Below, piece after piece: positions 4,144-17,803 of a stretch of 26,101 nucleotides of DNA; the stretch's first letter is position 1, and every line of letters starts with the position of its first letter. The stretch spans positions 1 to 26,101 of the forward strand of contig JBEKHN010000024.1 of assembly GCA_050012255.1 (NCBI GenBank), read 5' to 3'. The position numbers and the translations under genes are program-made. The notes beneath the pieces are model-generated. The model did no database searches and was not told the origin of the DNA. It saw only the letters and a program-made list of their open reading frames with translations. This DNA is from Candidatus Bathyarchaeia archaeon (GTDB taxonomy: Archaea; Thermoproteota; Bathyarchaeia; Bathyarchaeales; Bathycorpusculaceae).

Positions 4144-4208
4144 CGCGCGCGCTGCAAGAGAGGAGATATCTCCAGCCGCTTTCCTCTTTTTCTGTTTTCC
4201 AGCGCGCA

Positions 4209-4358
4209 TGCCTGTTCCTAAATTCGTTTGCAGAGTATTTTGTGCTTCCGGCTGTACTCCGTCTATGGATAGTGATGGACGTCGGGATACGATGGGCATC
4301 GTTCAGAAGGCGCAAATCAACTCTATCACACTTAAAAAGAGGAATTTAGGAACACGCT
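4209..4358 (+). mobile_element. 150-bp MITE, copy 1 (shares ends with the IS at 15255)
   Basis: Ends TGCCTGTTCCTAAATT ... AATTTAGGAACACGCT; flanking 8-mers AGCGCGCA (4201-4208) and AGCGCGCT (4359-4366); recurs at 11801 and 26001. Confidence 0.92.
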
Positions 4359-4477
4359 AGCGCGCTCTGCTACAAAGCAGTCTGGAATAGACTGAAACTT
4401 GGAAACAGTCGTACGCGGGAGTTGCCGTTCCCAGACTGTAATTTATACCGAAATTTCCCTTTTCTGTTAGATTGCAT

Positions 4478-4495
4478 GCCGCTGGGATTTGAACC
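4478..4495 (-). other. tRNA 3'-end-like remnant (possible att-site relic), not a complete tRNA
   Basis: Minus strand GGTTCAAATCCCAGCGGC (T-loop plus 3' stems); T-stem pairs poorly and the 5' part is replaced by the GC motif at 4505. Confidence 0.3.
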
Positions 4496-4671
4496 GGACC
4501 TCAAGCGCGCGCGCTTGCTCAACGCAGCGACTTTTGCTACTGCCATCATCAACGTTAACACTGTGGAGAATTACACGGTGAATGATTAAGGAGATGGGTC
4601 AAAACCGCCGTCGGGAAATCGTCGGCGAAAAGCTATAAGGCAAACCACAGATGTTGCAATAGGTGAGCTAA

Positions 4672-4839
4672 TTGCTGAAATGTCCAAGCTGCGGTTCTGA
4701 TGATACATACTATCGCCAAACAACATCTAAAGGAGATGAATACGAATGCCGCAAATGCAGCAACACGTTTACAGAGAAAGCTCCAGGCTTCCGTGCTCCT
4801 TCACCAGTTTCCACAGCGACTGAAGGAAGCAAGACATGA
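4672..4839 (+). CDS. 55-aa zinc-ribbon protein (not in the ORF track)
   Basis: RBS AGGTGA at 4661, TTG start, MLKCPSCGSDDTYYRQTTSKGDEYECRKCSNTF...*; two CxxC pairs. Confidence 0.75.
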   Translation: MLKCPSCGSDDTYYRQTTSKGDEYECRKCSNTFTEKAPGFRAPSPVSTATEGSKT

Positions 4840-4945
4840 ACTTCATGGTGCTCGTGAGCTTTCTCGCAGAACAGGCATATCTGCTGATGTTATCTGCGGC
4901 TATTTGAAATTGCTGGATTTGGAGCCTGAGGTTCAGGCGGCTCCG
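4838..4945 (+). pseudogene. ParB/Spo0J-like HTH fragment
   Basis: HGARELSRRTGISADVICGYLKLLDLEPEVQ; ends at palindrome GTGCGCGCAC 4946-4955. Confidence 0.5.
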
Positions 4946-4955
4946 GTGCGCGCAC

Positions 4956-4969
4956 TTTAGGAACGCGCA
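4956..4969 (-). mobile_element. Solo terminal inverted repeat remnant of the IS/MITE family
   Basis: TTTAGGAACGCGCA versus TTTAGGAACACGCA at 21946-21959 (13/14). Confidence 0.65.
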
Positions 4970-4973
4970 TAAT

Positions 4974-5021
4974 TTACCATTCTTCTTCTTCGAAGTCTTC
5001 TTCTTCATCTTCATCTGTCAT
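4974..5021 (-). CDS. 15-aa acidic micro-peptide MTDEDEEEDFEEEEW
   Basis: Strong GGAGGTG RBS just upstream of the ATG (5021); TAA stop. Confidence 0.5.
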   Translation of the reverse strand: MTDEDEEEDFEEEEW

Positions 5022-5200
5022 TCTTTTCCACCTCCATGCCTTTCCAGTGCGTAGTGAGAACATACATGAAATCTTTAAGGATTATTATGCGTCAGTTGTC
5101 AAGTATAGATTCAGGATCAAGTTAATGTTGAGCGTGCGCCCGAGATCGGGTTCACGGTTCACACATTAAATAGTAGGCTGCGCGCGGTTATAGGTAGACG

Positions 5201-5308
5201 ATGAGAATGATTGAAGAACCTAATTTTGACGATGATGAACCGTGGCTAGATGACGATGAAGACCAAGATGAACCGCAAGAACCAATTGAAGGGACTGAAG
5301 AGCCATAG
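5201..5308 (+). CDS. 35-aa acidic peptide MRMIEEPNFDDDEPWLDDDEDQDEPQEPIEGTEEP
   Basis: Open frame ATG 5201 to TAG 5308, lying between GC motifs at 5180 and 5364; strong D/E codon bias. Confidence 0.5.
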   Translation: MRMIEEPNFDDDEPWLDDDEDQDEPQEPIEGTEEP

Positions 5309-5520
5309 TTGAAAAACAGCAATGCTAGTACTGTTTCACACTTCTTTAGTCATTAATCTGTAAGCGCGCGCGGTCAATCGATAACCCGCTAATTTTTAGC
5401 GTGTTTCAACCCCATCTCCCAGCACCTCCATATTGAAAAAGCTGCGTCTTTTTGACGGATAGCTGATCCACGATGACCCATTGACGCGTGCGATTTGGTT
5501 TGGCTGCTGTCAAGACAGGG

Positions 5521-6259
5521 TTATGGGTAGTGCTGGTTGAAGTGGCCTGAAAGTATTATGGCGTCATAGATGTCAACAGTGCCGTCGCCGTTTATGTCTG
5601 CATTAGGATTCCACTTTGGACTGCCTGGACTGGAGTTGAAGGCGCCAGCCAGTATTATGGCGTCGTAGATGTCCACAGTGCCATCGCCGTTTATGTCGCC
5701 GGGGATGCCCACGTAGATCGTGCCGCCCGTCAGGTTGTTGTCGGCGGTGTTTGTTTCGCCTTGAACAGGCCAAGCGTAGGCGCTTATCGTGTAGTTGCCC
5801 TTAGCAATGCCGGTGGTGTTCCAGGTGAAGGTTATGGTGGTGGAGTTTCCGCTTGACAGGGTGACGTTTTGTGATGCTATGATGGTTGTGTTGGCGTATG
5901 CTGTAACATTGGAGGTTTCAGCGGAGTCGCCTACGTCTGCGGCTGTAACGTTGATACTCATGGAACATCCGCTTCCAACAACACTTTTTGAAGTGATGAC
6001 TCCCTCAATTGATACGTCATGGTTCGCTGATGAAGGACCGAAAGCATAGATTTTGCCATCCGTTGATCCTACGTAAACTACTTCGTTGACTACAACAGGA
6101 GAAGAATACACCCAGTAACCTGTCGTGTAGCTCCAAACATACGATCCGGTAGTAGCGTTCAGGCAGTAAACCTTCCCATCATTCCAATACCCTGATCCTA
6201 CGTAGATCAGACCACCAACAACGGCAGGAGAAGAATACACGTCATAGCCACCTGTCGTA
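5521..6259 (-). pseudogene. 5'-truncated PQQ-like beta-propeller + CARDB/Ig + dockerin protein
   Basis: VYSSPAVVGGLIYVGS / VYSSPVVVNEVVYVGS repeats, HDVSI..NVTLSSGNSTTITFTWNT, twin GDINGDGTVDIYD; similarity starts abruptly at the GC motif 6260-6269. Confidence 0.85.
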
Positions 6260-6270
6260 GCGCGCGCGCT

Positions 6271-6429
6271 GATTGGATAATAATCGTCGAAGAGGCAAAC
6301 ACCTTCAAGAACGTGCCGGCATTCGCGAAATTTCTCTATGGAAGCAGGCATGTAGTCAGGAAGATGATAGCTATTACCCCTCAAACCGATGCCTTCACGG
6401 GGCTGGTTACACTTGCGACTTACCACTAG
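6271..6429 (+). pseudogene. C-terminal fragment of an FtsK/HerA-superfamily P-loop ATPase (not in the ORF track)
   Basis: DWIIIVEEANTFKNVPAFAKFLYGSRHVVRKMIAITPQTDAFTGLVTLATYH*: Walker B (IIIVEE), SRH arginine finger, downstream Q; bounded by GC motifs. Confidence 0.6.
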
Positions 6430-6447
6430 ACAGGGCATAGCGCGCGC

Positions 6448-6602
6448 GATATGCTAGGCGCAATGCCCAAAAACGATGTCCACGTGTTCGGCGGTCACAC
6501 CTTGAACAGTCTGAAAGCAATGTTTTCCCGGTCAAGGCGCAGATTGGCTGTTAAGCTACAGAATCCCCGGCTCCTAGACATCCACTTTCACTCGCTACGC
6601 CA
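6448..6602 (+). pseudogene. Internal fragment of a tyrosine recombinase/integrase
   Basis: MLGAMPKNDVHVFGGHTLNSLKAMFSRSRRRLAVKLQNPRLLDIHFHSLR (HxLR box II), cut just after by the GC motif. Confidence 0.8.
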
Positions 6603-6611
6603 GCGCGCGCG

Positions 6612-6648
6612 CCTCCTTTTTTTTGTGTTTCGTTGATGCTTTGTATAC
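6612..6648 (-). promoter_or_regulatory. Orphan leader/RBS, related to 8677-8720
   Basis: Minus strand GTATACAAAGCATCAACGAAACACAAAAAAAAGGAGG, then GC motif. Confidence 0.5.
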
Positions 6649-6653
6649 GCGCG

Positions 6654-7940
6654 CTATATCGAAGGCTTGCGTCTGCCTGCCATCTTGGCAAGAAACGCAT
6701 AACCAACCAGAGTTGCGAACCCAATCAGTCCGAGGACTCCCCAAACAAACTTCTTATCCATCAACGAAGCAAACAAAGAAAAAGCAATCTGCGAACCCGC
6801 TGCCCCGCCTATTCCGAAGAATAGCCCAGTAATCGCCATATACCGTCCCCTCATGTCGGCAGGTGCAAGGTTGGCGACAAAACCCGAGCTAGCCGGAACA
6901 AACGTGATCTCCCCCAGCGTGAGTACGATGACGCCTATCAAGAACTGAGCGAAGCTTACAGCAAACATGAAATACGTGAAGCCCAAGGCATACAAGAACT
7001 GAGCAACTATGAAAGCTCTGGCAGCCCCTATTTTCACAGCTCCTTTTCTAATCGGTATTTGCAACGCAACAACCATCGCTCCGTTGACTGAGAAAAATGC
7101 GCCGAAAATGTAAGGCTCAAACCCAACGTACTGCGTGTAGACCGACAGCAACCCGTACAGCTGCGAGTAAACCAAATTCGTTAGCGCACCCATCAGACAG
7201 AAGAGAACGAAGACTCTGTCTTTGAATATTCCTGCAAACTGGGCAACAGACACCCCGCTACCTTCCTCAGGCGTGTAGGACTCCTTGATTGACAAGACGA
7301 GCCCACCTGCAGCAACCGCCGCAAACACGGCGGCATAAACAAAAAGTACAGGATAACCGTTCGTGCTTGCGATGAACCCACCGATCGGCGGCCCCACCAT
7401 CGTACCGATATTACCGATCATGTAACTCAACCCATACACCTCTTCGCGTCTTTCAGGGTTCACAAGATCGGCGACCATGGCGCTCTGGGCCGGATCAAAG
7501 AAAGCTCCAATGACTCCTGTGGCAGCATACAATAGTAGAAACTCGACGTAGCTGGTGACAAACGCGAAACAAGCAGTCAAAACGGCTAGGATGATCATCG
7601 AGAAAATCAGCATCCTTTTTCTTCCAAACCTGTCGCACAAGTTGCCAGTGACGAGCAGAGCAAACGTGTTTGCAAGACTGCCAATCATTATCATGAAACC
7701 AATGAGCGATGGGTCAAACTGTAGACCCCCGTTCACTCTGCTTCCGGTCAGAAACATTGCCAAGTAGGGGAAAGCTATGTTTCTCCCAAGTGAAAAGACA
7801 AACCCAAGACCAAGAAGGGCCCGAATCTGGAAGGGTAAACCCGTAAGCCCAACTCTAGAAGAGGCACGGAGAAACCACTGGCTTATCACTCTCGTAAGAC
7901 GTGAACTTCTGTACTGAGAGTTCATGATACAATTCATCAT
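6654..7940 (-). CDS. MFS transporter (MdtH-like drug/H+ antiporter type); start uncertain
   Basis: GNLCDRFGRKR motif A, GTMVGPPIGG motif C, about 12 TM segments; the stop TAG is part of the TAGCGCGCG motif. Confidence 0.92.
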   Translation of the reverse strand: MMNCIMNSQYRSSRLTRVISQWFLRASSRVGLTGLPFQIRALLGLGFVFSLGRNIAFPYLAMFLTGSRVNGGLQFDPSLIGFMIMIGSLANTFALLVTGNLCDRFGRKRMLIFSMIILAVLTACFAFVTSYVEFLLLYAATGVIGAFFDPAQSAMVADLVNPERREEVYGLSYMIGNIGTMVGPPIGGFIASTNGYPVLFVYAAVFAAVAAGGLVLSIKESYTPEEGSGVSVAQFAGIFKDRVFVLFCLMGALTNLVYSQLYGLLSVYTQYVGFEPYIFGAFFSVNGAMVVALQIPIRKGAVKIGAARAFIVAQFLYALGFTYFMFAVSFAQFLIGVIVLTLGEITFVPASSGFVANLAPADMRGRYMAITGLFFGIGGAAGSQIAFSLFASLMDKKFVWGVLGLIGFATLVGYAFLAKMAGRRKPSI

Positions 7941-8121
7941 TCTCCGTAGCGCGCGCGGGCACAGACAAATCTTGAATGGCCGTTAAGAACCTTTCTCTTT
8001 AACCAACGCGCGCGCTTATATTTTGTCAGCGCCTCCCACTGCGCTAGAGTTCCCGTCACTATCTGAGATTCATAACACACATTACATCATTTTCTATAGT
8101 TATCTAAGAGGAAATTTGAAG

Positions 8122-8295
8122 ATGGCTAATCGGCCGCTCGTGCTTAATTGTCCAGAATGCGGGAAACCATTGAAAAAGAACAAGGGCGAGGCTAGGTACA
8201 GCTGCGAAAACAGCGCTTGTTCCGTTATATCTGTTCGTCACCCTGACAAGCAAGGCATAATGGAGATACAATACGAGGCCAGAGCTCGCTCTTGA
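8122..8295 (+). CDS. Small zinc-ribbon protein, paralogue of 20732-20920
   Basis: MANRPLVLNCPECGKPLKKNKGEARYSCENSACSVISVR; ATG 8122 preferred over the track start at 8023. Confidence 0.65.
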   Translation: MANRPLVLNCPECGKPLKKNKGEARYSCENSACSVISVRHPDKQGIMEIQYEARARS

Positions 8296-8676
8296 GTGCG
8301 CACCGCGCTTCAGTCAATCAAGTTTCGCGCCGCACGTTGGACACCTAACCGGATAATTCTCTCCATTCATCATTTTCAATGCGCAACCAAAACAGATACA
8401 GATATTGCATTTTGGGCAATGATAGTTTGCTCCCTGAATACGAGTGCCGCACATATCGTAGAGTCTTGTCAAGCAACAGTCAGCCAACGGTTTCGCCCCT
8501 TCCTGATTAATGGAAAGCGCACCTTTGAAAGCTAAAAGGAATTTGCCGATGTGACCTAGATGCGACCGTGAGAGGACAGTTGAAGTGAAGGAATGGCAAG
8601 TTCTTTTTTCTCTAGGTCATAGTTTCGATGTGAATTTCATATTATGAAACCTTATACACTTGTATGGCGCGCGCGC

Positions 8677-8720
8677 CATAACCTCCGTTTTTAGTGTACC
8701 TCGTTGATGCTTTTGTATAC
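8677..8720 (-). promoter_or_regulatory. Orphan leader + RBS + ATG cut at a GC motif
   Basis: Minus strand GTATACAAAAGCATCAACGAGGTACACTAAAAACGGAGGTTATG, then GCGCGCGCGC. Confidence 0.55.
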
Positions 8721-8762
8721 AGACTTTACATTTGTCAATCTTCTGGATGTTTCCAGAATCTG

Positions 8763-8804
8763 GTTATGCGATAGATGTTATGCGATAGATGTTATGCGAT
8801 AGAT
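8763..8804 (+). repeat. 14-bp tandem repeat x3
   Basis: GTTATGCGATAGAT x3, perfect. Confidence 0.95.
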
Positions 8805-8865
8805 TGAGCTAGGTTCAACTATTTCAGAAAGTCTATTTTTCGATCGAGCGACCGGGGCGTTTTGA

Positions 8866-9342
8866 TTACTTGAGAAGTTCTGTGGCTTTTTCGATGGCAA
8901 ACCTAATTCGTTCTGTGCATGCATAGTCATGCACACTTCTGTAATACTCTTTGAATCCTTCAGCAGTCTTAATGTCAAGACCAGTGAGCTCTCGGCATGA
9001 TGTGGCTCCAAATCTTTCCTTGAAAACTCTGATGAACTCGTCCACCTTTGACCAAGTAGCTTGTGGGTTTTCAACATTGCTTTTTCTACCGTACTTGATT
9101 CCGATGGCCATGGCTACGCCTGATATTGATCCGCAAGTAAGTCCGTTCAACGAAAAACCAGCACCAACACCAGTGGCTATCTTCGGGATCAATTCTGATC
9201 TGACACCTAAGAATTCAGCAAGCGGAAGAAGAACGCTTTCACAACAATTGTATGGCCGACCTTCAGGGAAGTTGGCTGGCCTTTGCTGGAAATTCTTAAC
9301 AGCTTCCTCCTGAAGATTTTTCACGATTGACAAGGAAAACAA
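8866..9342 (-). CDS. C-GCAxxG-C-C family putative redox-active protein
   Basis: YNCCESV, GVGAGF..GLTCGSISG, FGATSCREL, terminal C. Confidence 0.88.
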   Translation of the reverse strand: MFSLSIVKNLQEEAVKNFQQRPANFPEGRPYNCCESVLLPLAEFLGVRSELIPKIATGVGAGFSLNGLTCGSISGVAMAIGIKYGRKSNVENPQATWSKVDEFIRVFKERFGATSCRELTGLDIKTAEGFKEYYRSVHDYACTERIRFAIEKATELLK

Positions 9343-9399
9343 CCCTCTTCAGAAAATTGGCCGCGTGGTTTTCAGACGTTTGGAAATACGAAGATCGCT

Positions 9400-9675
9400 T
9401 TATCTTCGCAACTTTCTTGCTTCTTCTTGTGGAATGGCAACCAGTGTTTCTGTTGCAGCCTTGTCAGAGAACATCATTCCGGCCATCATAGCTTCCTTTT
9501 CGCTTGGAGCTTCATAAAGTATCACCATGTCGTATCGCCTAAGCGTGTTCAGAACCTGATGTATTTTAATGCCTGCAGGCGGATGTTTCATAAACTTTTC
9601 AGATTTCTTACTGAATTCCTCGTCAACTGCTCCTCTCATCTTGGCTAATACAACGAATAACATTATCACACCCAC
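9400..9675 (-). CDS. GYD-domain protein
   Basis: TLRRYDMVILYEAPSEKEA..TETLVAIP (G of GxYD replaced by R). Confidence 0.82.
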   Translation of the reverse strand: MGVIMLFVVLAKMRGAVDEEFSKKSEKFMKHPPAGIKIHQVLNTLRRYDMVILYEAPSEKEAMMAGMMFSDKAATETLVAIPQEEARKLRR

Positions 9676-9764
9676 TTGATTGTATATGCTTCAGCATTTT
9701 AGATTTTCCGTCGCACGTACACATAATGCCGCAACTATTCGGGCGGTATAGCGCGCGCTTCATG

Positions 9765-10013
9765 CTAATGTGCACTGGCTATGAGCTTTTTGAGTTCTTC
9801 AATGAATTGGTCTTGGGCCACTATGTGACAAGCATGTCCATCGGGCAAAATGATTACCTTGGGATTTGACTCCAACACCTTCGAAAGCAAGTCCACTATG
9901 CCAGGGTTTTCTCCGACCGAATCCTTTCCCTTGATCAACAAAACAGGCTTGTCACGAAGTAATTGCAGTCGAGCAACGTCATCCGTGTGCTCTATCACCG
10001 TGTGAAGACTCAA
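9765..10013 (-). pseudogene. C-terminal fragment of an alpha/beta hydrolase
   Basis: PVLLIKGKDS..VIILPDGHACHI..DQFIEELKKLI; no nucleophile elbow; fills the interval between GC motifs 9751 and 10016. Confidence 0.7.
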
Positions 10014-10084
10014 GAGCGCGCGCGCAATAAATGAGTGTTGAATACAATGCTCAATGTGATGCCTGAATATTTGGGTGGAGCAGG

Positions 10085-10807
10085 ATGAACAAACTAGTAG
10101 CCGTAGTCATTGCGATAATTGTAGTTGCTGCAGTTGTCATTGGAGCTGTTTCTTACTACAGCCTTACACAGAAGAGTAAGGAATTGCCAACAAGCACTGA
10201 ACACGTGGGTGGCAAATACAATGTTACACTCAGTTTCTTCAACAGCAGTGGAGCCCAAATGGAATATACAGATGAAACTGGAAGCCATTCGGGTTTCATA
10301 ATTTTTGAACCTCAGATGAGGACTGGTTTGGATTGGATCAAGAATGCCACACCCGAAAACGCAGTGTTTCTGTGCTGGTGGGATTATGGCCACATGATCA
10401 AAGGCTACGCCGAAAGAAGCGTCGTCGCTCGAAATCCCTCACACGAGTGGATAAACATGATTGCAGAGCCGTGGCGCTCTCAAGTAACCGAGTTTGATCC
10501 AAACGAAAAGATCGTGGACATCGCCAAGGCCCTGACGACAAGCAATTCTACCGAGACGTTGCAGACTATGCAGAAATATGGTGCTACATATGTTGTCGTT
10601 TACAAGGATGATTTGCTCAAATCATCCTGGATGTACAAAGTCGCCGGGTTGGATCCGCCCACTCAATACGTAACGTACCAGAATTCTACTTACACATTCA
10701 CCGATGCTGGAATGAACACAATGATCTCCAGGCTTCTGGACAACAGAGACACAGGCCTCACCCTAGCCTACCAAGATGCCGTGATGAAAGTCTACGAGAA
10801 AGACTAG
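10085..10807 (+). CDS. Membrane-anchored stand-alone STT3/AglB C-terminal core-domain protein
   Basis: One N-terminal TM; LDWIKNATPENAVFLCWWDYGHMI; YGATYVVV..DLLK (DK-like motif). Confidence 0.85.
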   Translation: MNKLVAVVIAIIVVAAVVIGAVSYYSLTQKSKELPTSTEHVGGKYNVTLSFFNSSGAQMEYTDETGSHSGFIIFEPQMRTGLDWIKNATPENAVFLCWWDYGHMIKGYAERSVVARNPSHEWINMIAEPWRSQVTEFDPNEKIVDIAKALTTSNSTETLQTMQKYGATYVVVYKDDLLKSSWMYKVAGLDPPTQYVTYQNSTYTFTDAGMNTMISRLLDNRDTGLTLAYQDAVMKVYEKD

Positions 10808-11056
10808 AAAGCGCGCGCGAGTGGCACACTGGGTAACACAACAGCTACGCTTACCGGCACGCAAGTCATTGTTCATCCTCAGGGCCGCATGATCCAAGTA
10901 AAGGTCAATCCCCCGAGATTTCCATTCTTACTTTCCCTATTTCAATTGGCCATAATTGCGCGGGCGCAACTCGAAGGAGAGAAGTTCTAGAAGAAAATAC
11001 CATATCTGTTAAGTATGGGTCCAAACAAAACCAACTTGCATAAAGGAGCATAAACA

Positions 11057-11752
11057 ATGATGAAACTCAAATTGTTGACTTTGACTCTAGTGCTTGCTAT
11101 ACTGATGCCCACAACTCTTCTGTCAACATGCAAAGCTCAGACAGAACAAGTGTCACTGAAGTTCAACGCGGTTGCTACAGGGGAATGCCTGGTGCTAATT
11201 GAGAGTATCCTCGGTCCTCAACCACCAAAAGCATTTTTCATAGCGCGAGGCGCGATTGCAATCAGCGGCTCCGCATTGGCCACCGAAGTTCCACCAAGCC
11301 AAGACGTCCCATTCCCATACTACATCACAAATGATGGTGTCAATGCGGTCGGTGCGATTTCCGCAAGAGGGGAGGGCCAAATGATCACTGCACACCTCTA
11401 CTCAGAAGGCGAAGTTAGCGGGCTATTTGCAAACTTAAATGACGCAGACTGGTTCTTTGCAGGAGCTCTGCCAGGGGGATCATTGACTCCATCGATGTCC
11501 TACGAGGGATTATACAAAGATTCCACAGGGGTTCACAAAGTATCTGGAAAAGCCGCGGTTCTTGCATGTCTGATGGGTGATCCTGGTTCCCAATTCTGGG
11601 GAATCGGAGCAATACTTTTGAAACCAGACGGCTCTCCGCTGCTGTCCATAGTATGGGCTCTCACTGACGTAACTCTAGGTCCAGGCGGCGCAATGGGCAC
11701 TCTACATGCTGCAAACCAATTCATACACTCCGTAAGGGTTAGAGCGCCCTAG
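11057..11752 (+). CDS. Secreted hypothetical protein
   Basis: AAGGAG RBS, signal peptide MKLKLLTLTLVLAILMP..CKA; pyrimidine tract after the stop. Confidence 0.75.
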   Translation: MMKLKLLTLTLVLAILMPTTLLSTCKAQTEQVSLKFNAVATGECLVLIESILGPQPPKAFFIARGAIAISGSALATEVPPSQDVPFPYYITNDGVNAVGAISARGEGQMITAHLYSEGEVSGLFANLNDADWFFAGALPGGSLTPSMSYEGLYKDSTGVHKVSGKAAVLACLMGDPGSQFWGIGAILLKPDGSPLLSIVWALTDVTLGPGGAMGTLHAANQFIHSVRVRAP

Positions 11753-11753
11753 C

Positions 11754-11779
11754 TTCCCTTTCTCTCTTTTTCTTTCTTT
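11754..11779 (+). terminator. Archaeal oligo-pyrimidine terminator
   Basis: TTCCCTTTCTCTCTTTTTCTTTCTTT directly after the stop. Confidence 0.5.
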
Positions 11780-11800
11780 GTCATGGGCAGGTAGCGCGCT

Positions 11801-11944
11801 AGCGTGTTCCTAAATTCCTCTTTTTAAGTGTGATAGAGTTGATTTGCGCCTTCTGAACGATGCTCATCGTATCCCGGCGTCCATCACTATCCATAGACGG
11901 AGTAAAGCCGGAAGCACAAGATACTCTGCAAACGAATTTAGGAA
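11801..11944 (-). mobile_element. MITE copy 2, inverted, with the last ~6 nt replaced by the GC motif
   Basis: 4 substitutions versus copy 1; preceded by AGCGCGCT; ends AATTTAGGAA|GCGCGCGCGC. Confidence 0.92.
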
Positions 11945-12024
11945 GCGCGCGCGCTACAGTGACATCATACAAATCAGAAGAATGCATAGTGTAGCAATTG
12001 AGATACGGTCTTTGTTCATTTCTT

Positions 12025-12531
12025 TCACCACGAGTAACCGTTCAGCGCAAAACCGCTTCCTACTTCGATATTTTGCAGTACTCCAACCACGTGCATATCA
12101 CCATGACCGACGAACTGGCCTTCAACAATCTGGTTGCCGTCAATTGTCGGATGCACGATGCGTGCCTTTGCCACTCCTTCTACGATCCTGCCGTTATCGA
12201 ATGTTATCACGAATTGCACTATACTCGTTCCTTGAGCATCATACAAACCATTTGGACCCAGCCTCGCCACAAGCATAATGGTCAAGTCTACTCTTCCAAT
12301 GCGATGATTGCCATATTGATCGCCGAACTCATCCGTCACAAAGCCCCATTGAGTTCCATCAAGTATGAACAAGTTCTCGTTGAATTCTACTTTGCCTCTA
12401 AAGTTTTCAGGAGCAGCATATACCTTCACAAAGAACATTGACTGATTAGGTGCAGCATTTGCCAGTGGCATCAACGTGCAGAACAACAAAAAAAATGTGA
12501 ATACTAGAATCTTTGATTTTGACATGATCAA
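12025..12531 (-). CDS. Secreted beta-rich hypothetical protein
   Basis: Signal peptide MSKSKILVFTFFLLFCTLMPLANA; GAGGT RBS upstream. Confidence 0.72.
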   Translation of the reverse strand: MIMSKSKILVFTFFLLFCTLMPLANAAPNQSMFFVKVYAAPENFRGKVEFNENLFILDGTQWGFVTDEFGDQYGNHRIGRVDLTIMLVARLGPNGLYDAQGTSIVQFVITFDNGRIVEGVAKARIVHPTIDGNQIVEGQFVGHGDMHVVGVLQNIEVGSGFALNGYSW

Positions 12532-12841
12532 AGCCGGTACCTCTTCTTGTCGTCGCCTGCATAAAAGCTCAACTGAAGTCAGTTAAAAGCTTTCAGAAAG
12601 TATCTTCTAGAACGGAATATCATCCACCTTAAAAGGCTGACGCGCGCGCTATTAACTAAGTAAGGTAATAGCGTAGAAACAAAAAGTTTCTTCCTTGCGC
12701 GCGCGCAAACAGCTAGCGCGTGCGAGTTTTCCCGCGGTAATAACTCACTTTGCGGTCTCTTGGTTCTCTTATCCGCTATCGCCAAGAGAAGAAGGGAGGC
12801 TATGGGTAATGTTCTAGGAAGTGGTCTGCCAATATTATGGG

Positions 12842-15220: not shown

Positions 15221-15254
15221 AATGCAGACTCAGCCTCAATGATCTGTGCACGCA

Positions 15255-16325
15255 TGCGTGTTCCTAAATCCGCTGAAGCGCAATAAGTTGAGTCCCGTAC
15301 CTCTTTTCTGGAGTTTATCAATGAAGGGATGCGAGACTCTTGAGACCTTGTTTGGCAAGGTCGATTTATCCTTTGTTGAGCCAGTGCTTAATGAGTCTTA
15401 CCACGTGGAAGGCTTTGTCGGCAGGCCGCCGAGGAAGCCGCATGGCGTCTTCAAGGCGCATCTGCCGAGAAGGATGAGGCATGTTTCGAGCGACAGAATG
15501 CTTGTGAGACAGTTGTGGAAGGATCTGCGGTTGAGGCGAATATGTGACTTAGAAGAAAGCGAGCCTCCATACGGGATAGCAGTGTTGTCCAGGTTCAGGA
15601 GGAAGGTTAGACCTGAAAGGTTGATGCGAATCGCTGACCACGCCATAGAAGTGCTTGTCAAGAAGTAAAGAATCAGGGGCGAGACACTAGCGTTGGATTC
15701 AACGTTCATCAAGGCCCACAGCCGCAGAAGCCTTGACGACCGCACGGCTACAGCGACCCTGAATCAAGGGTTGGAAGAGCAGTCAAGACGAGAGACTTGG
15801 GCTCAGGCTTCACTTAGCCGTGGACGCTAAGAGCGAATTGCCCGTCGCCATGACCGTGACCCCGGCAAACGAGAACGAGAAGAGAGACTCTCTTGAGTTG
15901 TTTGAGGAGGCGTCACGCCAAGTGAAGCTTTGGAGTCGCGCGTGCGTGGCTGACCCACAGTACGGTTCACAGAGCCTCAGGGAAGCAACGCTCAGGCAGG
16001 GATCTGTGCCGGTCATTCCGTACCCCAGAAATCAGCAGAAGGGCATCAAGGGCGTCCTCAGGATCGACAGAAGATTTAGGAGTCACGGATCCGAGCACCT
16101 CAGAAGGACATACAAGAAACGCGTCGGAGTCAAACGGGTCTCCAGAGGACTCAAGAACCTCGCGGGCTTAACCCAACACAACCTCTGAGGACTGGCCAAA
16201 ATCACGTTCCCCGCCCAACTCTGCCTACCAGCCAAACTACTCACAGTCCTAGCTGCGCTCAACACACACAAACCGAGCAAAACGAGAAGCATAAGATACT
16301 TCGCAACCTAATTTAGGAACACGCG
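15255..16325 (+). mobile_element. Defective IS5-family insertion sequence (ISH1-group-like), 1071 bp
   Basis: IRs TGCGTGTTCCTAAAT / ATTTAGGAACACGCG; flanking 8-mers TGCACGCA / TGCGCGCT; N-GC ends, ~1.1 kb size and 8-bp DR fit the ISH1 group as I recall it. Confidence 0.85.
15321..16311 (+). pseudogene. DDE transposase pseudogene
   Basis: GRPP, LALDSTFIKA, YSDPESRVG, LHLAVDAKSELPVA..TPANENE, VADPQY; stops at 15666 and 16186, frameshifts near 15745 and 15803, and the expected VER reads VKR. Confidence 0.88.
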
Positions 16326-16549
16326 TGCGCGCTTTGATCGAGTGTGCTGTGTGGAAGCCCTCCATTTGAGGGAAGGGTTAAGCGAAGCTTGAGATGCGAT
16401 AGACACGTGCAAATTCCTTGTCCTTATCCTGCTTCCAACCCCTTGAATGAAACCTGAATCCTGCTCCTTTTCCGAATCAGGTGTTAGAATCTCAGAGGGA
16501 TAAGTTATTTATGTCTATTCATCACTATTTTGTTTTTGGGGATGAGCGG

Positions 16550-16810
16550 TTGACTGAAGAAAACGTCGTCGAAGTGGGACGGATAACGCATTTTTTCTCA
16601 AAGATCAGCGTCGCCGTCATCGAACTCAGCAAGCCCTTGAAGGTTGGCGACACCATAGTTGTAAAGGGTCCAACGACGGATTTTGAGCAGCCTGTCGATT
16701 CGATGCAGATCGAGCACAAAGACGTTCAGAAGGCCGAAGCAGGGCAAAGCATCGGCTTAAAAGTTTTGCAGCGCGCTAGAGAAACTGACCTAGTGTACAA
16801 GAAGCTGTAG
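16550..16810 (+). CDS. Translation-elongation-factor-domain-2-like small beta-barrel protein
   Basis: VGRITHFFSKISVAVIELSKPLKVGDTI..DFEQPVDSMQIEHKDVQKAEAGQSIGLKV; TTG start chosen. Confidence 0.85.
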   Translation: MTEENVVEVGRITHFFSKISVAVIELSKPLKVGDTIVVKGPTTDFEQPVDSMQIEHKDVQKAEAGQSIGLKVLQRARETDLVYKKL

Positions 16811-16834: not shown

Positions 16835-17191
16835 TTATCTGACCGGTTCTTCCCAGTCAGTTGCGCATCCGCCTTCTGGAACAAGAATTATCGTTGTTTC
16901 ATCCGGGATAGGCATCCGCGGGTTTTCTCTTACGCTGAGGAACATCCCTGACTTCGTGTATGCTTAAACTGCAACTTGGTTGTAGAATCTGCCCTCGACG
17001 GGATGATAGACCATTTCCATGAGGCACTTGAATCCTTTCACTGAAAACTCGCTGCACTTCTCCCTTATCATCTGGTCAACGGCATTGATGACATCAAGAA
17101 TAGAAGCGTCATCACCGAAAGAAAGTCGCAGACCGCTGGGAAAAACCCAGCTTACACTGGTTTGTCTGATAATCATAGTGACGGCTTTCAA
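16835..17191 (-). pseudogene. Possible ubiquitin-like (MoaD/ThiS/SAMP-type) protein interrupted by an in-frame TAA at 16964-16966
   Basis: Reading through gives ..DASILDVI..FYNQVAV*AYTKSGMFLSVRENPRMPIPDETTIILVPEGGCATDWEEPVR*. Confidence 0.55.
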
Positions 17192-17803
17192 CAGTCAACC
17201 CCCAGCATGACCCCGCATCAGACGAATGCGGCCTGGTAGAACTATGCAAATTCCTCTCAAAATCTCTTTCCCACGACCAGAGGACATGAGCCCATCAACA
17301 TACATACCGATCATCCATGTTCAAAAAGTCTCACATGAATACATAGGGTCACGATCAACACGCTAGGGAAGAGGGACAGGCGTTTCAGCAAGCTCTGAGC
17401 ATGGCGGATCAAACCAGAAGAAGGCGTGATCGCATAGTGCATCAAAAAGTTACTACCCCTGCCCAGACTCTCAGCCAAGCCCCAAGTACGTACTCGCCTT
17501 CAACCCCGCGCAAAGTCAGAGAGGCCTTGCCCAACGCCTACGTGCAGTACTAGTACCCTAGGGGGGAGGGGGAGGGTAAAATAGACGGGGCCAAAACGCG
17601 AACACAGGGATGTAGCGCTCACTGAGAATACAAGAGAAGCAGCTGAAAGATGAAATGAAAAGGCAAACAGATGCCAAGCCCAGCCGACGCACATGCCAAA
17701 TCGTCACACTGACAAATGGATACCTTCAACACACGAACTGGAAATTTCGACCTGACAAACCTGTAGCCCAAACCTAGCGCGCGAGTGTGAGGAAACGAGC
17801 GGT

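Follow-up and report, generated by a model that had tools for sequence, protein, structure and literature searches.

Short alternating GC palindromes at gene joints in a Bathyarchaeia genome: possible scars of an IS5-type transposon and its miniature derivatives

Introduction

What kind of process leaves the same short GC palindrome at joint after joint between unrelated pieces of an archaeal genome? The question is raised by a 26,101-bp contig of the soil-dwelling Candidatus Bathyarchaeia archaeon (contig C24, analysed whole and called here the window; genome G000, 2.35 Mb in 38 contigs, 48% GC), in which gene fragments and single genes are crowded together with alternating GC stretches of at least 8 nt, hereafter runs. 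A preliminary description of this DNA took the run to be a constant stamp, peculiar to one 8.6-kb stretch, of a capture or end-joining process. Here we report that runs are spread through the genome and its genus, that they coincide with breaks in homology far more often than control sites do, and that their letters recur at the tips of an IS5-type insertion sequence (IS) and of its MITEs (miniature inverted-repeat transposable elements). We tentatively favour reading them as transposon scars, and weigh below the lineages in which that reading fails.

Results

A GC palindrome crowded in the window and spread through the genome

The core CGCGCGCG occurs 14 times in the window, every copy within 4144-12705, just as first counted, and none of 100 dinucleotide-preserving shuffles reached that number; their mean of 0.30 shows the chance expectation of 0.1 given earlier to be of the right order, if low. 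Twelve of the 14 cores do share a form read on one strand, as had been claimed: the 10-mer AGCGCGCGCG gives 15 strand-specific matches that cover these 12 (0.02 expected), and the other two read GGCGCGCGCGCC (8666-8677) and TGCGCGCGCGCA (12696-12707). With one further run absent from the earlier list (GCGCGCGC, 9751-9758), the 8.6-kb stretch holds 15 runs, which makes it the densest 9-kb window of G000 (genome mean 1.5 per 9 kb).

The motif is not private to this stretch. Its 8-nt form GCGCGCGC is the most over-represented 8-mer of G000 (434 copies, 16.8 times the expectation from base composition), and the genome contains 393 runs with the consensus (T)A(GC)4-5T(A). Alternating GC stretches of 6, 7, 8, 9, 10 and at least 11 nt number 355, 171, 201, 123, 63 and 6, respectively. 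T adjoins a run in 59% of cases, and A takes the next position out in 35%; no conservation farther than 2 nt out, and no longer repeat around the core, was seen among the G000 runs. Only 91 of the 393 fall inside open reading frames (ORFs, crude calls of at least 90 aa made without gene prediction), though these together fill 82% of the genome, placing most runs in intergenic DNA. There they show no bias towards gene starts or stops (72, 72, 69 and 61 runs in the four spacer types), and spacers that bear a run are commoner when long (15 of 512 spacers of 20-99 nt vs 112 of 410 spacers of 300-999 nt). Neither CGCG nor GCGC showed restriction-type depletion (ratios 1.07 and 1.03).

An order-level sample comprised ten species of the genus and 20 genomes from other genera of the order. 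All ten species carried the AGCGCGCGCG 10-mer (7-154 matches each, one being a single-contig genome), and each of the 20 other genomes had 0-4 matches; the motif returns in several other Bathyarchaeia lineages, as set out below. No tRNA or Rfam family and no CRISPR-like array appeared in the window. Repeats of the attC type were not noticed there either, and run flanks are unconserved beyond 2 nt, although attC structure was not tested directly. A search at the level of listings and abstracts found no published description of the motif.

The joints recur in independent data

A constant linker between unrelated pieces gives the first impression of a library linker or of chimeric assembly, and this impression is all that speaks for an artefact. 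The preliminary description had proposed a check of the joints in independent libraries, and Logan contigs from two other studies do cross those at 6260, 6440, 6603, 12641 and 12697 without a single difference (data set X2 covers 6213-6710; X3 covers 6262-6697 and 12187-12764); one 5.9-kb Logan contig spans 5875-11820. Some runs are, moreover, conserved at orthologous places in G000 and the related species G007. Because of these independent bridging contigs, the presence of the motif in all ten genus species, in a single-contig genome and in other lineages, and the conservation of orthologous runs, we consider an assembly or library artefact ruled out, with a residual probability that is negligible.

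Runs lie at homology breaks and at indels

Within G000, 60 of the 393 runs have the end of an intragenomic repeat match at most 4 nt away and only nine are spanned by such a match, about five of these appearing internal to MITE family B. For comparison between species we used 1.58 of the ~2.4 Mb of G007, whose largest contig aligns across 610 kb with 90.5% identity to G000. A run was eligible when G007 matched one or both of its 150-nt flanks, and was scored as lying at a break when one flank only matched or when the two flanks were non-collinear. By this measure 127 of 171 runs (74%) sit at homology breaks, compared with 121 of 771 random sites (16%) and 306 of 764 random non-coding sites (40%), so the suggestion of genome-wide clustering at synteny breaks is borne out. 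Symmetric A..T runs and one-sided runs behave alike (break fractions 0.76, 0.74 and 0.72).

Collinear blocks of the two genomes tell a similar story at smaller scale, with a run (at most one mismatch) at the short-allele junction in 25 of 88 indels vs 4.1% of non-coding control windows. In 20 of these cases neither edge of the long allele bears a run. A perfect run occurs in 17 of the 88 indels, and 31 have a run with at most one mismatch at either allele. Many differences between the species set a run against 19 nt to 2.4 kb of DNA, which fits the earlier picture of a deletion or repair scar compacting a hotspot. The long allele lies in G000 for 68 indels and in G007 for 20; either G000 gains DNA or G007 loses DNA more often. 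One 1.48-kb segment, found in no other of ten genus genomes searched, adjoins a retained run in G000, and a second indel, compared with further species so as to polarise it, turned out to be a chimeric locus.

Within the window itself, tblastn against the G000 genome and the 1.58 Mb of G007 confirmed that pieces are cut mid-gene, with three fragments that end at runs (Table 1). That the cores are boundaries, as the preliminary description had it, holds for several of them and in the genome-wide enrichment; it fails for the cores at 7949 and 12697, through which homology passes.

An IS5-type element and its MITEs bear the same letters at their tips

A candidate source of the supposed stamp is an IS5-type element with GCGCGC tips, together with its similarly tipped MITEs, of which the stretch itself contains two copies. 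The window carries a stop-broken IS whose ORFs match DUF772 (E 1.7e-9) and DDE_Tnp_1 (E 2.3e-7); intact transposase frames of 328-341 aa occur in G009 and G003. Its terminal repeat, GC..GCATGCGTGTTCCTAAAT, is common to the MITEs: GCGCGC(AT/TA)GC.TGTTCC.AAATT stands at both ends of the IS, of MITE families A and D and of a 166-nt family, and the repeat of family B is related. Overall, the IS and at least four MITE families of G000 end as GCGCGC..TGTTCC.AAATT....GCGCGC set between (T)A and T(A). Family A is represented by 12 full-length aligned copies (~20 partial matches), B by 13, D by 8 and the 166-nt family by 6. The G001 copy of the IS has TA on either side, as have four of the eight family-D copies and a MITE at C3:43050; other copies are without TA on one side, and some fit a 4-bp GCGC duplication inside a pre-existing run equally well as a TA duplication.

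Relatives of the transposase were found in 57 of 301 genomes in a class-wide Bathyarchaeia sample. Because readable IS relatives from other genera (51-74% protein identity) keep GC tips (GCGCGCATG.., GCGCGCCAG.., CGCGCCAG..), the tips belong to the element. The terminal-repeat pattern occurs 86 times in G000, is present in eight of ten genus members and in none of the 20 genomes of other genera of the order; motif and pattern thus both occur in the genus.

Elements and runs at orthologous loci

Few elements could be placed in the other genome (3 of 31 from G000 and 1 of 4 from G007). At C3:43050, TA-MITE-TA in G000 faces TA-TCGCGAGC-TA in G007, and in the filled allele the GC letters number no more than 6+6, which the tips by themselves account for. 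A MITE at C1:250246 in G000 is matched by TA-GCGTGCGT in G007; conversely, GCGCGCGC at C4:77058 faces a ~205-nt MITE in G007, and GCGAGCGCGCGC at C7:91888 faces 25 nt of terminal repeat followed by CTAGCGCGCGCTA. None of these four comparisons, one of which was made by a single flank only, had a clean empty site opposite the MITE. At C3:19943, G000 reads TATTA(GC)5TATTT vs TATTT in G007, which looks like the birth of a run with flank duplication.

Orthologous runs change fast. Of 76 runs with collinear flanks (44 from G000, 32 from G007), both species have a perfect run in 18 cases; the two differ by a single change in 12 and by at least two in another 12, the other species has no run in 5, and in 29 the run lies opposite additional DNA, 4 nt to 2.4 kb in length. 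Point changes within runs are mostly CpG transitions (C-to-T and G-to-A, giving forms such as GCGTGC and GCACGC), among orthologues and paralogues alike.

Other lineages and candidate host factors

Elsewhere in the class the motif is frequent in G144 (151 matches), G117 and G237 (107 each), G316 (101), G106 (95), G115 (89) and G123 (82). In genus g63 of family f24 (G227, G143, G161), GCGCGCGCGA is two to three times commoner than AGCGCGCGCG (203 vs 75 in G227), which suggests that this genus carries a sister motif, T(CG)4A; several g63 genomes hold many copies of a related transposase, plus Ku.

No dedicated capture or end-joining enzyme has emerged. A seemingly complete set of genes for end joining does exist in G000, outside the window: a LigD-type polymerase domain, Ku (E 5.6e-41) and a ligase with a phosphoesterase-like C-terminus adjoin one another at C10:11479-14554, the names of polymerase and ligase being read from translations, without a family search. 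Ku occurs in seven of ten other genus members and 1 of 20 genomes of other genera in the order-level sample (31 genomes), and class-wide in 73 of 301 genomes, among them other genera of the same family; the search gave no Ku in ten motif-rich genomes and turned it up in many motif-poor ones. Since Ku does not track the motif across the 301 genomes, we reject the idea that Ku/LigD end joining made the joints. Vsr-biased repair was likewise rejected: Vsr turned up in 10 of 301 genomes, but in neither G000 nor any other motif-rich genome. No Y1/RAYT transposase (PF01797) was found in five genomes including G000, and no IS630-type DDE_3 in five motif-rich genomes. Integrase and recombinase domains were absent from the window ORFs scanned with Pfam; no genome-wide search for these families was made.

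Features of the window

Runs, elements and gene fragments of the window are collected in Table 1.

Table 1. Runs, mobile elements, gene fragments and other features of the window
Feature	Coordinates	Strand	Remarks
Gene fragment, last 53 aa	3980..4141	-	Intact paralogues extend 1044-1059 aa N-terminally; cut at run 4144 (tblastn)
GC run CGCGCGCGC	4144..4152		Left side adjoins the 3'-terminal fragment of a ~1100-aa gene family
166-nt MITE, 25-nt terminal inverted repeats AGCGCGCATGCCTGTTCCTAAATTC...GAATTTAGGAACACGCTAGCGCGCT	4201..4366	+	At least six copies in G000; 96% identity to one G001 copy
GC run GCGCGCGCGC	4505..4514		Context AAGCGCGCGCGCTT
GC run GCGCGCGCG	5364..5372		TAA before it
Gene fragment, C-terminal 245 aa (PQQ-like blades, CARDB, dockerin), secreted protein family	5524..6258	-	Paralogues 198-583 aa longer N-terminally; homology ends at run 6260
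GC run GCGCGCGCGC	6260..6269		Context TAGCGCGCGCGCT
GC run GCGCGCGCG	6440..6448		TA before it
Internal 50-aa gene fragment between two runs	6451..6600	+	Paralogues have 197-364 aa before and 81-91 aa after the matching part
GC run GCGCGCGCGC	6603..6612		~40 nt downstream of MFS stop codon
MFS transporter gene, intact, 428 aa	6654..7940	-	Run on each side
GC run GCGCGCGCG	7949..7957		9 nt upstream of MFS start; inside unbroken homology, G009 orthologue CAAATTTTGTGA
GC run CGCGCGCGC	8007..8015		G009 MFS-locus homology stops ~12 nt before run
GC run GCGCGCGCGC	8667..8676		Atypical G/C flanks
GC run GCGCGCGC	9751..9758		Context TAGCGCGCGCT
GC run GCGCGCGCGC	10016..10025		GA before it
GC run GCGCGCGCG	10811..10819		3 nt past stop codon of 240-aa WWDYG protein gene
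Second 166-nt MITE copy, inverted relative to the first	11793..11944	-	97% complementary over 152 nt; outer end altered, 7 nt of repeat gone, tip grown to a 10-nt run
GC run GCGCGCGCGC	11945..11954		Lengthened tip of MITE copy 11793-11944
GC run CGCGCGCGC	12641..12649		Paralogous homology (C1:168123-168312) starts exactly after run
GC run GCGCGCGCGC	12697..12706		Inside unbroken homology; paralogue GCTGGCGGC
IS5-type insertion sequence, 1.09 kb, DUF772 + DDE_Tnp_1	15246..16333	+	Stop-broken
740-nt stretch in G000 and G001	17018..17757		Decayed run GCGCCCGCG at its place in G007; G008 and G009 have another gene order, without run
Partial 166-nt MITE at contig end	25993..26101	+	Its repeat probably broke the assembly

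Several neighbouring features deserve mention in their own right. The 240-aa protein at 10085-10807 has one N-terminal hydrophobic stretch, the WWDYG motif and a weak STT3/PglB-core match, and looks like a stand-alone C-terminal part of an AglB-type oligosaccharyltransferase. A 90-aa zinc-ribbon gene (8023-8295, DNA_ligase_ZBD match) belongs to a multi-copy family in G001, G007 and G009 with 74-82% nucleotide identity, and positions 5152-5326, where a 7-nt GC run accompanies a small ORF of very acidic composition, are 95% identical to G001 vs the usual 75-90%. Pfam returned no matches for the small fragments of the window. Positions 17441-17617 hold a ~176-nt repeat (family C; 21 copies in G000, more than 20 matches in G001) without GC tips or obvious inverted repeats. 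At 16481-16810, a small EF-Tu-domain-2-like gene is inverted relative to its radical-SAM (MiaB-like) neighbour in G008 and G009, where the spacer between the two is 0-130 nt vs ~1 kb in the window.

Discussion

Our leading explanation, held with somewhat less than even confidence, takes the runs to be transposon scars, formed tip to tip, that also serve as pseudo-ends at which DNA is cut and joined again and again. On loss of an element, both its GC tips would stay behind, joined to each other and framed by the duplicated TA, as a solo run, TA(GC)4-5TA; if the self-complementary 6-nt tips were joined with an overlap of 2-4 nt, runs of 8-10 nt would result. Resembling two abutted transposon ends, the solo run may remain a site that is cut at the edge between TA and GC and then rejoined, and with such cutting insertions, deletions and inversions would start at run edges. 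Repeated deletions anchored on runs would in turn erode neighbouring genes and draw the runs together, with the crowded stretch of the window, its gene fragments and single genes strung among 15 runs in 8.6 kb, as the outcome. That solo runs are cut, that tips join with overlap and that events came in this order is what we infer; the scar model would account for the TA beside runs, their sharp upper length, their place between genes, their association with indels and their crowding where intervening DNA has been lost.

Several observations weigh against this explanation. Where flank DNA is missing beside a run, simple excision leaves the survival of the tips unexplained, so extra steps are needed. 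The four pairs of MITE and scar are equally open to the reading that a MITE inserted into a run already there, and no excision joint was seen in Logan contigs, which retained all runs but would not reveal rare variants. Counts of motif and repeat pattern correlate only loosely within the genus, G009 having 106 motif matches and two repeat-pattern matches. The most telling case is G109, a genome of another family in a single 1.98-Mb contig with 39% GC and 305 AGCGCGCGCG matches. The 0.42 Mb of it that were scanned hold 86 runs, flanked by T (67%) and A (51%) more clearly than those of G000 and inside ORFs in 12 of 86 cases. No DDE_Tnp_1, DDE_3, Y1 transposase or terminal-repeat pattern was found in G109, and its 420 kb have almost no repeats and no MITE-like pair of runs, compared with 20 such pairs across all 2.35 Mb of G000, a sequence ~5.6 times longer. 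Motif-rich G109, G144, G237, G106 and G117 together give two repeat-pattern matches. Draft genomes often miss IS elements. Close IS relatives, in turn, occur with few runs in G258 (74% identical transposase, 5 motif matches) and in g67 genomes. The transposon model is therefore not the whole story. Either the runs elsewhere stem from other elements, so far unseen, or the palindrome exists as a site in its own right, which the IS of this genus exploits or copies.

The latter view, that some protein or selection makes or keeps a genomic palindrome (a REP- or HIP1-like sequence, a recombination site or a fragile site) which the IS and MITEs target or mimic, is a strong rival, though short of probable. 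It accommodates the abundance of the motif in lineages without the IS, the closed genome G109 included, where a run stands in nearly every spacer of an array of amidase, MFS, CMD, MFS, Zn-ribbon, methyltransferase, MobA-like and NrfD genes that also includes a truncated DNA-alkylation-repair gene. It agrees with the finding of a GC run, and never a clean empty site, in all four MITE comparisons, and with the persistence of perfect runs despite their fast change, only 18 of 76 being perfect in both species. IS elements that target extragenic palindromes are known (Tobes and Pareja 2006, PMC1525189). Yet no candidate protein emerged, with Y1/RAYT in none of five genomes, Vsr in no motif-rich genome and Ku not tracking the motif; the identity of run and element-borne tips would call for coincidence or mimicry; the run at C3:19943 appears to have arisen without a prior GC run and with flank duplication, pointing to a transposition-like birth; and the filled allele at C3:43050 has no more GC letters than its tips supply.

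We judge it distinctly unlikely that the stretch is a cassette array of a dedicated site-specific recombinase, integron-like without attC, with the 10-12-bp palindrome as attachment site and single genes entering, leaving and inverting between runs. At runs, G000 and G007 do differ by the presence of gene-sized segments (0.7-2.4 kb), arrays of the gene-run-gene-run kind occur in the window and in G109, the mixed orientation is allowed by a palindromic site, and the 1.48-kb segment specific to G000 among the ten genus genomes lies beside a run. However, inserted segments mostly have a run on one side or none (20 of 25 long alleles without edge run), few indels carry a perfect run (17 of 88, or 31 allowing one mismatch at either allele), fragments cut mid-gene are unexpected for site-specific cassettes, and no recombinase was found among the window ORFs scanned. 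The palindrome is also shorter than known recombinase sites. Highly improbable in our view is a mutational or repair bias, such as cytosine methylation combined with biased mismatch repair, that makes runs whose position at joints is secondary: the differences between runs, mostly CpG C-to-T and G-to-A, are the pattern expected of methylated cytosines, but Vsr is absent from motif-rich genomes (10 of 301 overall), the sharp length limit and TA flanks are unexpected under a bias, and no bias can create flank duplications, cut genes or kilobase replacements.

A bolder proposal, which we think rather unlikely, is that several Bathyarchaeia lineages share an undescribed plasticity system with TA(GC)4-5TA as universal joint, in which a horizontally spread nuclease or recombinase cuts the edges, DNA pieces of gene size come in, drop out or turn round there, and the joint forms anew; IS5-type elements in this genus would have taken over its sequence at their ends, and in function such a system would be an integron without attC or IntI. 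Most likely, the finding is a variant of transposon scars and palindromic hot spots, with a substantial chance of an origin in a novel recombination system. If the runs are scars and pseudo-ends, they offer a rare genome-wide readout of cut-and-paste transposition in uncultured archaea, with hundreds of scars and a run at about a quarter of the presence/absence differences between G000 and G007. If they are an independent site, they point to a hitherto undescribed route by which single genes enter and leave the genomes of archaea that are widespread in sediments and soils. In both cases the motif can serve in practice to mark variable regions and decaying genes in these genomes.

TA-targeting cut-and-paste transposons of the Tc1/mariner type leave on excision a duplicated TA and a few end letters, and the runs resemble these footprints in having TA, a few letters of each inverted repeat and TA again, a short palindrome with no more flank conservation, as where TA-MITE-TA faces TA-8 nt-TA at C3:43050. 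They are unlike them in that the element here is an IS5-type prokaryotic IS, that many runs stand at indels and not in collinear DNA, and that motif-rich genomes exist without the element; to our knowledge, footprints by the hundreds per genome have not been described for archaea or bacteria.

Repetitive extragenic palindromes (REPs) and bacterial interspersed mosaic elements (BIMEs; PMC1525189, PMC2817692) are, like the runs, palindromes found in large numbers between genes, where they draw in insertion sequences and signal plastic regions. REPs are imperfect palindromes of 20-40 nt with a GTAG/CGTC head and a RAYT gene. The palindrome here is perfect and 10-12 nt long, and the Y1 transposase was found in none of five genomes. 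HIP1 (GCGATCGC) of cyanobacteria is abundant within genes too, whereas here 91 of 393 runs lie in the ORFs that cover 82% of the genome, and runs mark homology breaks. Like the runs, HIP1 is a GC-rich palindrome (8 nt), many-fold over-represented and lineage-restricted, as outlined in PMC5861425. Integron cassette arrays share with the window the separation of unrelated single genes by a recurring site in a variable region. Their attC sites are structured imperfect inverted repeats of roughly 60-140 nt, one after each cassette, whereas here flanks are unconserved, gene fragments are present, orientation is mixed, sites are genome-wide and the window ORFs scanned hold no integrase. The element itself is like other members of the IS5 family in its DUF772 and DDE_Tnp_1 domains, its terminal inverted repeats and its many short non-autonomous derivatives, and unlike them in its apparent TA duplication and GCGCGC tips, which are particular to this clade.

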